Assembly (NCBI RefSeq): GCF_003018115.1
Contig: NZ_CP027457.1
DNA length: 64,000 nucleotides
Strand: one strand, 5' to 3'
Source: Escherichia coli
GTDB lineage: Bacteria; Pseudomonadota; Gammaproteobacteria; Enterobacterales; Enterobacteriaceae
Shown: piece by piece, positions 3,395 to 54,695 of the stretch
How positions within the stretch are numbered: the first letter of the stretch is position 1
Layout: every line of letters begins with the position of its first letter
Position numbers and translations under genes: made by a program
Notes under the pieces: generated by a model
What the model was told of the DNA's origin: nothing
Seen by the model: the letters and a program-made list of their open reading frames with translations, nothing else
Database searches by the model: none

Positions 3395-4608
3395 ATATTT
3401 TGCAATTTAATGTGCGACTGGCGGAAGGCGGGGCAGCAGGTGTGGCGTTAGATCTCCACCAGCGTGCGCTGCAACAGGGGCTAGCGTCACATTTTGTCTA
3501 CGGTTACGGCAAAGGCGGCAAAGAGAGCGTCAGCCATCAAAACTATCCGCAGGTCATCAAACATACGCCGCGGATGACTGCAATGGCGAATATTGTCCTG
3601 TTTCGTCTGTTTAATCGCGATCTGTTTGGCAATTTCAATGAGTTATATCGCACCATTACTCGCACACCGGGTCCGGTGGTCCTGCATTTTCATGTGCTGC
3701 ACAGCTACTGGCTAAATCTTAAGAGCGTGGTGCGCTTTTGCGAAAAAGTGAAAAACCATAAACCGGACGTCACTCTGGTCTGGACGCTGCACGACCACTG
3801 GAGTGTTACCGGACGCTGCGCCTTTACCGACGGTTGCGAAGGCTGGAAAACAGGCTGCCAGAAATGCCCGACCTTAAATAATTATCCGCCGGTGAAGATT
3901 GATCGGGCGCACCAGCTGGTGGCGGGCAAACGCCAGTTATTCCGTGAGATGCTGGCGCTGGGCTGTCAGTTTATTTCCCCCAGCCAGCATGTGGCTGACG
4001 CTTTCAATAGCCTGTACGGTCCAGGGCGTTGCCGGATTATCAATAACGGTATTGATATGGCAACCGAAGCGATTCTGGCGGATCTGCCTCCGGTGCGCGA
4101 AACCCAGGGTAAGCCGAAAATCGCGGTGGTGGCGCATGACCTGCGTTACGACGGCAAGACTAACCAGCAACTGGTGCGTGAGATGATGGCGCTGGGCGAC
4201 AAAATCGAACTGCATACCTTTGGTAAGTTCTCGCCGTTCACCGCTGGTAACGTGGTTAATCACGGCTTTGAAACCGACAAACGTAAGCTGATGAGCGCGC
4301 TCAATCAGATGGATGCGCTGGTATTCAGTTCTCGCGTCGATAACTACCCGCTGATTTTGTGTGAGGCGCTATCGATTGGCGTGCCGGTGATTGCCACCCA
4401 TAGCGACGCGGCGCGGGAAGTGCTGCAAAAATCCGGCGGTAAAACCGTCAGCGAAGAAGACGTGCTGCAACTGGTGCAGTTAAGCAAACCGGAAATCGCG
4501 CAGGCGATATTTGGTACCACGTTGGCCGGGTTCAGCCAACGTAGCCGCGCCGCCTACAGTGGACAACAGATGCTGGAGGAGTATGTCAACTTCTATCAGA
4601 ATCTGTAG
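3391..4608 (+). CDS. wcaC: Colanic acid glycosyltransferase
   Basis: 405 aa ORF; start overlaps wcaB stop. Confidence 0.85.
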   Translation: MNILQFNVRLAEGGAAGVALDLHQRALQQGLASHFVYGYGKGGKESVSHQNYPQVIKHTPRMTAMANIVLFRLFNRDLFGNFNELYRTITRTPGPVVLHFHVLHSYWLNLKSVVRFCEKVKNHKPDVTLVWTLHDHWSVTGRCAFTDGCEGWKTGCQKCPTLNNYPPVKIDRAHQLVAGKRQLFREMLALGCQFISPSQHVADAFNSLYGPGRCRIINNGIDMATEAILADLPPVRETQGKPKIAVVAHDLRYDGKTNQQLVREMMALGDKIELHTFGKFSPFTAGNVVNHGFETDKRKLMSALNQMDALVFSSRVDNYPLILCEALSIGVPVIATHSDAAREVLQKSGGKTVSEEDVLQLVQLSKPEIAQAIFGTTLAGFSQRSRAAYSGQQMLEEYVNFYQNL

Positions 4609-5810: not shown

Positions 5811-6557
5811 ATGTTGCTTAGCATAATCACTGTCGCGTTTCGTAACCTCGAAGGGATAGTCAAAACACATGCCTCGCTGGCGCATCTGGCGCAGGCGGAC
5901 GATATCAGCTTCGAATGGATTGTTGTCGATGGCGGTTCCAACGACGGTACCCGTGAGTATCTGGAGAATCTCAATAGTATCTATAACCTACGCTTTGTCA
6001 GCGAGCCAGATAACGGTATCTACGACGCCATGAACAAGGGCATTGCGATGGCACAAGGCAAGTTCGCGTTGTTTCTCAACTCGGGCGATATTTTTCATCA
6101 GGATGCCGCAAATTTTGTTCGTAAGTTAAAAATGCAAAAAGATAACGTGATGATCACCGGCGATGCGCTGCTGGATTTTGGCGACGGGCATAAAATTAAG
6201 CGTAGTGCTAAACCGGGTTGGTATATTTATCACAGCCTGCCCGCCAGCCATCAGGCGATATTTTTCCCGGTATCCGGTTTGAAAAAATGGCGTTATGACC
6301 TGGAATATAAAGTTTCTTCTGATTACGCGCTGGCAGCTAAAATGTATAAAGCAGGTTATGCATTTAAAAAACTCAATGGCCTGGTGTCTGAATTTTCCAT
6401 GGGTGGGGTATCAACCACCAATAATATGGAATTGTGTGCTGACGCCAAAAAAGTCCAACGGCAGATATTACATGTGCCTGGCTTCTGGGCAGAATTATCC
6501 TGGCATTTACGCCAACGTACTACCTCAAAGACGAAAGCCTTATATAACAAAAGCTGA
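5811..6557 (+). CDS. wcaE: Colanic acid glycosyltransferase (GT2)
   Basis: 248 aa ORF; conserved position. Confidence 0.85.
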
Positions 6558-33105: not shown

Positions 33106-34272
33106 ATGAAAATAACAATTTCAGGAACAGGTTATGTTGGTCTTTCAAATGGTATTCTGATTGCGCAAAATCACGAAGTAGTTGCATTGGATATCGTTCA
33201 GGCCAAAGTTGACATGCTTAACAAGAAGCAGTCACCGATTGTTGATAAGGAGATTGAAGAGTATCTGGCGACTAAAGATCTCAATTTCCGCGCTACGACA
33301 GATAAGTATGACGCGTATAAAAATGCCGATTACGTTATTATTGCCACGCCTACCGATTATGACCCGAAAACAAATTATTTTAATACCTCAAGCGTGGAAG
33401 CGGTCATCCGTGATGTGACAGAAATTAATCCCAACGCGGTAATGGTGATTAAATCTACAATTCCGGTAGGTTTCACCAAATCAATTAAAGAACGTCTGGG
33501 TATCGATAACCTTATTTTCTCTCCGGAATTTCTCCGTGAAGGTAAAGCCCTTTACGATAATCTCCATCCTTCACGTATTGTCATTGGTGAGCGTTCAGAA
33601 CGCGCAGAACGTTTTGCTGCGTTGTTACAGGAAGGAGCGATTAAGCAAAATATCCCGACCCTGTTTACCGACTCCACTGAAGCAGAAGCGATTAAACTTT
33701 TTGCAAACACCTACCTGGCGATGCGCGTGGCGTACTTTAACGAACTGGATAGCTACGCAGAAAGTTTAGGTCTGAATTCCCGTCAAATAATCGAAGGCGT
33801 TTGTCTCGACCCACGAATTGGCAACCATTACAACAATCCGTCGTTTGGTTATGGTGGTTATTGTCTGCCGAAAGATACCAAGCAGTTACTGGCGAACTAC
33901 CAGTCTGTGCCGAATAACCTGATTTCGGCAATTGTCGATGCTAACCGCACGCGTAAAGACTTTATTGCCGATGCCATTTTGTCACGCAAACCGCAAGTGG
34001 TGGGTATTTATCGTCTGATTATGAAGAGCGGGTCAGATAACTTCCGTGCGTCTTCCATTCAGGGGATTATGAAACGTATCAAGGCGAAAGGCGTTGAAGT
34101 GATCATATACGAGCCGGTGATGAAAGAAGACTCATTCTTCAACTCTCGCCTGGAACGAGATCTCGCCACCTTCAAACAACAAGCCGACGTCATTATTTCC
34201 AACCGTATGGCAGAAGAGCTTAAGGATGTGGCAGACAAAGTCTACACCCGCGATCTCTTTGGCAGTGACTAA
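33106..34272 (+). CDS. ugd: UDP-glucose 6-dehydrogenase
   Basis: ORF 33079..34272 trimmed to [16 protein letters not shown] (388 aa). Confidence 0.95.
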
Positions 34273-50174: not shown

Positions 50175-51341
50175 TTGAAACGCCGTCTTATTATTGCTGC
50201 TTCTTTGTTCGTTTTTAACTTATCGTCTGGTTTTGCGGCGGAAAACATTCCTTTTTCACCTCAGCCTCCTGAGATTCATGCCGGATCCTGGGTATTGATG
50301 GATTACACCACCGGTCAGATCCTCACCGCGGGTAATGAGCATCAACAGCGCAATCCCGCCAGCCTGACAAAGCTGATGACGGGTTATGTCGTGGATCGCG
50401 CTATCGATAGTCATCGCATTACGCCAGACGATATTGTCACCGTGGGGCGTGATGCGTGGGCGAAAGATAATCCGGTGTTTGTCGGTTCTTCACTGATGTT
50501 TTTGAAAGAGGGCGATCGCGTATCGGTACGTGATTTAAGCCGTGGTTTAATTGTGGATTCCGGAAATGACGCTTGTGTTGCACTGGCTGACTATATTGCC
50601 GGTGGGCAACGGCAGTTTGTTGAAATGATGAACAACTATGCCGAGAAGCTGCATCTCAAGGATACGCATTTTGAAACAGTGCATGGCCTGGATGCGCCAG
50701 GTCAGCATAGCTCGGCTTATGATTTAGCTGTGCTTTCTCGCGCTATCATCCACGGCGAGCCCGAGTTTTATCATATGTACAGTGAGAAAAGCCTCACCTG
50801 GAACGGTATCACCCAGCAAAACCGTAACGGGTTATTGTGGGATAAAACCATGAATATTGACGGCCTGAAAACGGGTCATACTTCTGGTGCCGGGTTTAAT
50901 CTCATTGCTTCGGCTGTAGATGGGCAGCGTCGTCTCATTGCAGTGGTAATGGGTGCTGACAGCGCAAAAGGTCGTGAGGAAGAGGCAAGAAAATTACTGC
51001 GTTGGGGGCAACAAAACTTTACTACGGTGCAAATTTTGCACCGTGGGAAAAAGGTCGGTACGGAACGCATCTGGTATGGCGATAAAGAAAATATCGCCCT
51101 GGGAACAGAACAAGAGTTCTGGATGGTACTACCGAAAGCCGAAATTCCACATATCAAAGCCAAATATACCCTTGATGGTAAAGAGCTCACCGCGCCAATT
51201 AGCGCCCATCAGCGGGTAGGGGAAATTGAACTTTACGACCGTGATAAACAGGTGGCGCACTGGCCGCTGGTTACCCTGGAATCTGTCGGGGAAGGCAGCA
51301 TGTTTTCTCGCCTGAGTGATTATTTCCACCATAAGGCCTGA
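50175..51341 (+). CDS. dacD: D-alanyl-D-alanine carboxypeptidase (PBP6b)
   Basis: ORF 50169..51341 has no ATG start; TTG at 50175 follows gaggg; SLTK active-site motif present. Confidence 0.85.
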   Translation: MKRRLIIAASLFVFNLSSGFAAENIPFSPQPPEIHAGSWVLMDYTTGQILTAGNEHQQRNPASLTKLMTGYVVDRAIDSHRITPDDIVTVGRDAWAKDNPVFVGSSLMFLKEGDRVSVRDLSRGLIVDSGNDACVALADYIAGGQRQFVEMMNNYAEKLHLKDTHFETVHGLDAPGQHSSAYDLAVLSRAIIHGEPEFYHMYSEKSLTWNGITQQNRNGLLWDKTMNIDGLKTGHTSGAGFNLIASAVDGQRRLIAVVMGADSAKGREEEARKLLRWGQQNFTTVQILHRGKKVGTERIWYGDKENIALGTEQEFWMVLPKAEIPHIKAKYTLDGKELTAPISAHQRVGEIELYDRDKQVAHWPLVTLESVGEGSMFSRLSDYFHHKA

Positions 51342-51425
51342 CCTTTCTTTTGCAGCAGACTGGCAGGAGTGCGAGTCTGCTCGCATAATCAACACTCATT
51401 CCTTGTGGTTTTAATTTTGCAACTA

Positions 51426-51445
51426 TACTGTATATAAAAACAGTA
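51426..51445 (+). promoter_or_regulatory. LexA (SOS) box upstream of sbmC
   Basis: tactgtatataaaaacagta matches the CTGT-N8-ACAG consensus, 15 bp upstream of the sbmC start. Confidence 0.75.
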
Positions 51446-51459
51446 TTAATGGAGGCGTC

Positions 51460-51933
51460 ATGAACTACGAGATTAAGCAGGAAGATAAACGTACCGTTGC
51501 AGGTTTCCATCTCGTTGGCCCGTGGGAACAGACGGTAAAGAAAGGCTTTGAGCAGTTGATGATGTGGGTAGATAGCAAAAATATTGTGCCGAAGGAGTGG
51601 GTTGCTGTCTATTACGACAATCCAGATGAAACACCCGCCGAAAAATTACGCTGCGACACCGTCGTGACGGTGCCGGGTTACTTTACGCTTCCCGAAAACA
51701 GTGAGGGCGTCATTCTGACAGAAATTTCAGGTGGTCAGTATGCGGTGGCGGTAGCTCGTGTAGTCGGTGATGATTTTGCTAAACCCTGGTATCAGTTCTT
51801 TAATAGCCTCTTGCAGGACAGTGCTTATGAAATGTTACCAAAGCCCTGCTTCGAGGTTTATTTGAACAATGGCGCGGAAGATGGGTACTGGGATATCGAA
51901 ATGTATGTTGCGGTGCAGCCAAAACATCACTAA
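51460..51933 (+). CDS. sbmC: DNA gyrase inhibitor SbmC/GyrI
   Basis: 157 aa; [24 protein letters not shown]. Confidence 0.9.
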
Positions 51934-52131
51934 TTCATCTCAGGGCGGTGTGTTAACGCGATGACCACTCTTTTTTTTGAAAGCGAAAAGAGTAAGATGC
52001 GCCTTTCAATTTTTTCGCTCCTGCCGGGAAATTACACTGTTCCCGGTTTGTCCGTCGGATATTTCAGAGGCGCCCCTTCTGGCCGACAGATGAGTTATGA
52101 GCGCTTTTAATCTTCATTACGGAGTTTCTGC

Positions 52132-53190: not shown

Positions 53191-53361
53191 TTCCTGAACT
53201 TCAGAATCATCTTGCTGCTGCTTCGATTCAGCAAGGATAAAGGGTATGATAGTGAAAAGGGATAAAAGCATTGTCATCTGCGGCAGCTATGAGTAATGTT
53301 GGCCCTAACGAATAGCGGTTGCTTAAACGAATCCGACTCTCACATTATCAGGGGTATAAAA

Positions 53362-53691
53362 ATGGAAACTACCAAGCCTTCATTCCAGGACGTACTGGAA
53401 TTTGTTCGTCTGTTCCGTCGTAAGAACAAACTGCAACGTGAAATTCAGGACGTTGAGAAAAAGATCCGTGACAACCAGAAGCGCGTCCTGTTGCTGGACA
53501 ACCTGAGTGATTACATCAAGCCGGGGATGAGCGTTGAAGCAATCCAGGGCATCATCGCTAGCATGAAAGGTGACTATGAAGATCGCGTTGACGATTACAT
53601 CATCAAAAATGCCGAGCTCTCCAAAGAACGCCGCGATATCTCCAAAAAGCTGAAAGCTATGGGCGAAATGAAAAACGGCGAAGCGAAGTAA
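53362..53691 (+). CDS. yeeX: DUF496-family protein YeeX
   Basis: ORF 53296..53691 trimmed to [14 protein letters not shown] (109 aa). Confidence 0.8.
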
Positions 53692-54149
53692 TTCCTGTTT
53701 TATTCAATGAGGGTTGCCCGGCAACCCTCATTGCTCATTGATTCTTTTCTGTGTATCACAGTCATCATTCCCATCTGATAACCTATCGAAATTAGCGACA
53801 GACATCTTCTGTATGAAGCAAGGCAAAAAGTTCTGCAACTCTATTGTTATTAACCGCACTGGTTACTAACACGTTGTGCGATCCAGCTTCCCGTAACCAA
53901 ACTTTCACCAAAGATATTTCTTCCATGCTGGCTAAATCTGCTTTGGTGACTACTCCAATGATCGGACGTTAACACGAGGAAGTCTGGCTATTCCACAATG
54001 CCATCTTCTTTCGTAATGGATTGAGAATGCTGGATTTTTAATTATATTACGCGCAGTATTAATCGTGTAAATGTTTTGCGGTCAGCAACGGTGGGGGATC
54101 CATTGTTCTGTTCAATGAATACCATCATACAATTGAATCAGGAGTCGGT

Positions 54150-54695
54150 ATGATGATTTTGGTGACGGGGGGCGCACGGAGCGGGAAGAGTCGCCACGCA
54201 GAGGCGCTTATTGGAGACTCTTCACAGGTTCTGTATATCGCCACCTCGCAAATCCTTGATGATGAGATGGCTGCACGGATAGAACATCATCGGCAAGGCC
54301 GCCCGGCGCACTGGCGCACGGTGGAGCGCTGGCAACATCTTGATGAATTAATTCATGCAGACATTAACCCGCATGAAGCTGTGTTGCTGGAATGCGTTAC
54401 CACAATGGTGACTAATCTGTTGTTTGATTATGGCGGAGATAAAGACCCTGATGAATGGGATTATCAGGCGATGGAACAGGCGATTAATGCTGAGATTCAG
54501 TCGTTGATTGCTGCCTGCCAACGTTGCCCCGCAAAGGTTGTATTAGTGACTAACGAAGTGGGAATGGGGATTGTGCCGGAGAGTCGTCTGGCACGTCATT
54601 TTCGTGATATTGCCGGGCGGGTAAATCAGCAGCTGGCCGCTGCGGCGAATGAAGTGTGGCTGGTGGTTTCGGGTATTGGAGTAAAAATCAAATGA
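54150..54695 (+). CDS. cobU: Adenosylcobinamide kinase / adenosylcobinamide-phosphate guanylyltransferase
   Basis: 181 aa; P-loop GGARSGKS. Confidence 0.9.

Follow-up and report, generated by a model that had tools for sequence, protein, structure and literature searches.

Does the 20-nucleotide element in front of sbmC serve as an operator for the SOS repressor LexA, and if so, by what arrangement of promoter elements would LexA control this gene? We examined this question in a stretch of Escherichia coli DNA of 64,000 nucleotides (the window), for which a preliminary description had placed a canonical LexA box directly upstream of the gene. We consider it very likely that the 20-mer is the operator through which LexA controls the E. 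coli sbmC (gyrI) promoter, and that it represses by occluding the -10 element and the transcription start site (TSS) until DNA damage relieves the repression. The features of the box and the gene are as follows:

51426..51445, plus strand: very probable LexA operator (SOS box) TACTGTATATAAAAACAGTA, from the sequence read, the matrix score, identity with the published K-12 box and cross-species conservation.
51428-51431 and 51440-51443, plus strand: half-site cores of the box, CTGT and ACAG, with the 8-bp AT spacer ATATAAAA between them.
51451..51455, plus strand: Shine-Dalgarno (SD) sequence GGAGG of sbmC, from the sequence read and kept in nearly all of the 80 loci compared below.
51460..51933, plus strand: sbmC (gyrI) coding sequence, 157 aa, DNA gyrase inhibitor, from the open reading frame, the match to 1JYH and the RefSeq annotation.

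The sbmC reading frame matched PDB 1JYH chain A, "DNA gyrase inhibitory protein", over residues 1-157 of 157 (E=1e-108), a full-length match to a structurally characterised E. coli protein that identifies the product as SbmC/GyrI. A 1.1-kb query around the box matched 5419 of 5426 complete E. coli genomes at 95-99.7% identity, with dacD, sbmC and yeeA annotated in this order by RefSeq, and the closest genome has the gene order tsuA-tsuB-sbcB-dacD-sbmC-yeeA-tmaR-cobU. The dacD-sbmC spacer is that of K-12 MG1655 except at position 51447, two bases beyond the box, where the window has T and K-12 has C. Farther downstream, cobU comes almost immediately after tmaR (yeeX) (window positions 53296..54695); the cryptic prophage CP4-44, which lies beside tmaR in K-12, is absent from the window strain and likewise from E. 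coli F9792. Within dacD, the intragenic site IS25 of a published sigma-54 ChIP-seq study (ACGGTGCAAATTTTGCA) is unchanged at 51024..51040 and is nearly palindromic, with a one-mismatch match on the minus strand at 51028..51044. At 400 bp upstream of the box, this site has no connection with it, and we set it aside.

The box reads tactgtatataaaaacagta on the plus strand, and the window sequence around it reads ...caacTATACTGTATATAAAAACAGTAttaatGGAGGcgtcATG. It departs from the consensus TACTG(TA)5CAGTA at two positions and is alone in the 64-kb window in having three or fewer mismatches; no site this close to the consensus appeared in any of 100 dinucleotide-preserving shuffles. It is also the sole instance of CTGT-N8-ACAG in the window. 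For scoring, we used a symmetrised log-odds matrix of 17 LexA operators (PMC3009722 Table 4), from which sbmC was excluded. On this matrix the box scored 26.7 bits of a maximum possible 29.7; with the identical umuD site also dropped from training, its score was 25.96 bits. The 17 training operators themselves span 13.7-27.2 bits. The box therefore combines the consensus motif and an intact CTGT-N8-ACAG core with a score in the range of proven operators. A scan of the whole window gave nothing above 12.2 bits outside the box, including upstream of dacD and yeeA; the second-best site (11.7-12.2 bits) is at 33743, within a 397-aa open reading frame. The maximum in random first-order Markov windows (n=200) averaged 12.3 +/- 2.2 bits, with a top value of 20.4 bits. 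Because the runner-up scores about as high as the maximum of random sequence, we regard the box as the only LexA box in the window. Both the sequence match and this uniqueness are direct observations.

The preliminary description fares well against these results. Its box lies on the plus strand at exactly 51426-51445, with 2 mismatches and 26.7 bits, and its statement that neither dacD nor yeeA has a comparable box agrees with a window that elsewhere stays at or below 12.2 bits. The matrix scan it had proposed, with a score below threshold as grounds for rejection, left the box with a wide margin, since 26.7 bits compares with 11.7-12.2 bits for the runner-up and with a random mean maximum of 12.3 +/- 2.2 bits. 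Two of its descriptions need adjustment. The "20 bp palindrome" has perfect outer arms (TACTGT/ACAGTA), but is imperfect overall, with 16 of 20 positions self-complementary and an asymmetric central ATATAAAA. The distance of "15 bp upstream of the sbmC start codon" is right in that the last box base is at -15, but the gap to the ATG at 51460 is 14 nt.

We then asked how the element fares upstream of orthologous genes. A scan with the SbmC protein, taking one genome per species, yielded 80 loci from Escherichia, Citrobacter, Salmonella, Enterobacter, Lelliottia, Kluyvera, Leclercia, Klebsiella, Raoultella, Atlantibacter, Pseudocitrobacter and other genera, and in each locus the 250 nt preceding sbmC were scored with the same matrix. 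Of these 80 Enterobacteriaceae species, 76 have a box of 13.7 bits or more ahead of the orthologue. The median score is 22.6 bits, with at least 17 bits in 69 and at least 20 bits in 54. In those 76 loci, shuffling the upstream region 200 times never gave a score as high as the observed one, and the remaining ~3.2 kb of each of the 80 loci contained no site of 13.7 bits or more. In 75 of these 76 the gap between the box and the ATG is 14-24 nt; it is 14 nt in Escherichia, 15-16 nt in Citrobacter, Salmonella, Enterobacter, Kluyvera and Leclercia, and 20-24 nt in Klebsiella, Raoultella, Atlantibacter and Pseudocitrobacter. It is specifically CTGT and ACAG that are kept at a fixed position, with a variable spacer between them (75 of 80 species; alignment). 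This conservation of position upstream of orthologous genes, again observed directly, gives the box a phylogenetic footprint.

Individual loci depart from the pattern. Escherichia sp. MOD1-EC7003 has lost the box by deletion (…TTGCAAACATACTGATTGGAGGCGTCATG; locus positions 1460-1760), and its sbmC is truncated after approximately codon 82 by an internal deletion that extends into the sbmC-yeeA spacer; this lineage is a natural control, in which operator and gene decayed together. K. michiganensis DSM 25444 has GC-rich sequence in place of the box, the best box of Intestinirhabdus alba is 166 nt upstream, and two Raoultella loci have only a degenerate box of 10.6-12.3 bits. The left half-site is also degenerate by clade, reading TAGTG (GTGT for CTGT) in Enterobacter/Lelliottia and ATGT in Klebsiella/Raoultella, and in both groups, where the box lies ~15-24 nt ahead of sbmC, the right half-site ACAGTA is retained. 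This pattern points to LexA control that is weaker or asymmetric in these clades.

Published work on K-12 bears on function. The published K-12 sbmC SOS box, TATACTGTATATAAAAACAGTATCA (PMC3009722 Table 4), is the 20-mer of the window, which settles the comparison with the known promoter that the preliminary description had called for, and in the same study this box was the top scorer in the MEME SOS motif among UV-induced genes. By RNA-seq, AZT induced K-12 sbmC 5.7-fold, and expression was 9.5-fold dependent on cleavable LexA (lexA3); the heterology index (HI) of its box, 2.8, is near the bottom of the range for classical SOS genes (PMC11228462 Table 1). Induction that depends on LexA cleavage has thus been demonstrated by others for the identical K-12 sequence; together with the SbmC/GyrI identity from 1JYH, this bears out the proposed SOS control of the gyrase inhibitor. 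A review counts sbmC among LexA-regulated genes (PMC6590174), and sbmC of Salmonella Typhimurium, with one box of HI 6.32, is SOS-induced 3.55-fold (PMC8072944). The main text of PMC4576408 does not contain the 20-mer, and a literature search on sbmC with Sxy/CRP-S or with ChIP found no further promoter-level data. For the window itself, LexA binding at the box is a prediction supported indirectly by the published HI of 2.8 and by identity with the umuDC operator.

These data also allow us to weigh whether the 20-mer might be a chance AT-rich palindrome, or simply a promoter -10 or AT-rich sequence that LexA does not bind. The spacer region is indeed AT-rich, TATA-like strings are common in promoters, and a promoter-like sequence on the minus strand, TTAATA-16-TATAGT, overlaps the box. 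Against this, the box scores 26.7 bits where the best of 200 random windows reached 20.4, 0 of 100 shuffles gave a match, CTGT/ACAG stays in place in 75 of 80 species as the spacer varies, and expression is lexA3-dependent (PMC11228462). The score statistics, the cross-species conservation and the reported lexA3 dependence together exclude a chance palindrome, to which we would assign a negligible likelihood.

With the 20-mer taken as a LexA operator, we turned to the promoter that it would control, for which the relevant features are:

51424..51429, plus strand: putative -10 hexamer TATACT, overlapping the left arm of the box by 4 nt, with an invariant TA and T51429 (TAnnnT).
51403..51408, plus strand: possible weak -35 element TTGTGG, with a 15-nt spacer to TATACT and a TTG kept in most aligned species.
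51370..51385, plus strand: CRP-S core TGCGAGTCTGCTCGCA (Sxy-dependent CRP site), the sole perfect TGCGA-N6-TCGCA in the window.

An alignment of 20 species revealed four conserved blocks: a CRP-type site, a TTG motif, the TA at 51424-25, and the SD sequence with the ATG. The TA adjoins the 5' side of the box and is invariant in all 20 species, whereas the mirror positions 3' of the box are variable. This invariance supports TATACT as a putative -10 element overlapping the box; how exactly the box overlaps the -10 and the TSS, and repression by occlusion, are inferred. C51423 and the hexamer together give CTATACT, which we take to be a -10 of the sigma-S-preferred type; such an element would probably agree with the reported stationary-phase induction of sbmC. 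The -35 is poor, its distance to the -10 ranges over 15-18 nt among genera, and a simple sigma-70 consensus scan found no plus-strand promoter overlapping the box. In a tiling array with a resolution of ~7 nt in intergenic regions, the sbmC transcript induced by UV has its 5' boundary at ~51434, inside the box and 5 nt downstream of TATACT (PMC3009722). We checked the coordinate conversion with Table 4 of that paper (start 64 = 51424), the supplements of which contain no sbmC or yeeA transcript coordinates. Given the boundary at ~51434, the box would span approximately -10 to +10, the classical position for occlusion. As another candidate promoter, we considered TTGCAA (51417-22) with CAGTAT (51441-46) and rejected it, as TTGCAA is unconserved and the TSS would land inside the SD sequence.

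The CRP-S core has the symmetric form TGCGA-N6-TCGCA and is centred at 51377.5, 58 bp upstream of the centre of the box and ~57-61 bp upstream of the putative TSS, a class I distance. Cameron and Redfield found that sbmC induction needs both CRP and Sxy, and a class I mechanism is cited (PMC1635313), with which this spacing is consistent. In the window the core is 40 nt upstream of the box, and Escherichia, Citrobacter, Salmonella, Enterobacter, Kluyvera and Leclercia keep it at 40-43 nt; Klebsiella, Raoultella and Atlantibacter have a canonical CRP site, TGTGA-N6-GCACA, in its stead. A relaxed search of the window with two mismatches gave 26 CRP-S matches where 39 were expected; since relaxed matches are not enriched, only the single perfect site is meaningful. 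Overlapping the CRP-S site, just past the dacD stop codon, is a 12-nt inverted repeat, AGCAGACTGGCA-GGAG-TGCGAGTCTGCT, at 51354..51381 (11 of 12 complementary), with no U-tract after it; it may be a 3' stem-loop of dacD, or the reason for a conserved CTGGCA block.

This block enters into another reading of the promoter, in which the box is a real LexA site that acts as a roadblock below an upstream promoter, CTGGCA-18-CATAAT (51360..51389, TSS ~51396), rather than by -10/TSS occlusion. The sigma-70 scan gives this promoter a 9/12 match, and both hexamers are conserved in the clade from Escherichia to Enterobacter. However, the hexamers flank and overlap the CRP-S site, which can account for their conservation, as can the hairpin formed by AGCAGACTGGCA and TGCGAGTCTGCT. 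Moreover, class I activation by CRP requires a promoter ~60 bp downstream of the CRP site, and the UV-induced transcript has its boundary at ~51434, not ~51396. We therefore judge a roadblock quite improbable. The class I geometry and the ~51434 boundary also led us to reject the antisense TTAATA-16-TATAGT as the main promoter.

Under repression by -10/TSS occlusion, a LexA dimer in the undamaged cell would occupy both half-sites, CTGT and ACAG, and would keep RNA polymerase off the -10 (51424..51429) and the start region (~51434-51439). Upon DNA damage, RecA filaments would prompt LexA to cleave itself, the operator would be vacated, and sbmC would be transcribed; the SbmC protein would then bind gyrase and guard against gyrase poisons. 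Because the operator is near consensus and is the same 20-mer as that of umuDC, we expect tight repression, with induction only after substantial depletion of LexA. Once LexA is released, output would be set by CRP-cAMP/Sxy and probably sigma-S. Release of LexA would thus be necessary but not the sole input, because full activity also needs the CRP-S site (CRP-cAMP with Sxy, class I) and probably sigma-S. A biphasic profile has been reported for an sbmC reporter under UV, for which the authors suspected an alternative sigma factor (PMC5999292).

The operator might also reach beyond sbmC. In this extension of the LexA-operator explanation, which is possible and is not a rival to it, the box would govern a two-gene unit, sbmC-yeeA, by read-through, and yeeA (a FUSC-family membrane protein) would be a member of the SOS regulon without a box of its own. 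The two genes are on the same strand, yeeA is among the UV-induced annotated genes of the tiling-array study (PMC3009722 Table 5), and a scan of the 198-nt sbmC-yeeA spacer (51934..52131) found no canonical intrinsic terminator; folding the spacer gives only a GCCGGGAA/UUCCCGGU hairpin, followed by UUUGU. In contrast, the fold of the spacer is more stable than that of its shuffles (z = -2.2) and the spacer may terminate or be processed, and the AZT/lexA3 RNA-seq paper makes no mention of yeeA (PMC11228462). We regard read-through as a tentative proposal, with the balance tilting against it. A broader version, to which we give slightly less credence still, combines SOS read-through into yeeA with a box that perhaps doubles as a sigma-S-type -10 (CTATACT), such that LexA occupancy would set sigma-factor access. 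If the operator did govern yeeA in this way, yeeA would be an unrecognised member of the SOS regulon.

Within E. coli, the operator varies little. A 67-bp query around the box matched 4671 genomes, almost all at 95-100% identity, and the sampled alleles had changes only at box position 19 (C, …ACAGCA), at position 20 (G, …ACAGTG) or in the flanks. In 32 of the 5426 complete genomes (0.6%), however, the ISL3-like element ISEc53, with a ClbS/DfsB-family gene, is inserted inside the AT spacer of the box (51432..51439). The target-site duplication is ATATAAAA, and the half-sites come to lie ~1.9 kb apart, as in E. coli CAVP773 (NZ_CM176349.1), at locus positions 4201-4238 and 6078-6115. Carriers include APEC O78 and human blood isolates. 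The insertion detaches sbmC from its putative -10 and its CRP-S site, making these natural alleles that are predicted to be cut off from LexA, CRP-S and sigma-S control.

The window strain itself has an intact textbook SOS operator, and regulation of its sbmC should be as in K-12. In practice, the window can serve as a positive control for motif-scanning pipelines: its 64 kb hold a single strong true site, and false positives stay at or below ~12 bits. The clade-specific degeneration of the left half-site, the joint loss of box and gene in one lineage, and the IS insertion in the operator spacer are small leads, not discoveries.

As for known systems, the feature is already known, since the K-12 box, its LexA-cleavage dependence, its listing in a review and the SOS induction of the Salmonella gene are all published; the sbmC LexA operator has been described before, and our analysis adds nothing new to SOS biology. 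The closest system is sbmC of K-12 MG1655 (b2009), which has the same 20-mer, distance to the ATG, CRP-S site, -10-like hexamer and SD sequence, and differs from the window in the dacD-sbmC spacer only at 51447 (T in the window, C in K-12). Salmonella enterica (e.g., STM14_2551) and Citrobacter have an orthologous operator, CACTGTATATAAATACAGTG, 16 nt from the ATG, with arms (CACTG...CAGTG) that differ from those of the window. Outside sbmC, the umuDC operator of E. coli is exactly the 20-mer TACTGTATATAAAAACAGTA of the sbmC box, and the boxes of umuD (HI 2.1) and sbmC (HI 2.8) are among the most consensus-like chromosomal LexA sites (PMC11228462). The promoter context of the two nevertheless differs, as sbmC has an upstream CRP-S site, an apparently sigma-S-type -10, and biphasic or stationary-phase induction. 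Induction by AZT differs likewise, at 56-fold for umuD versus 5.7-fold for sbmC (PMC11228462).
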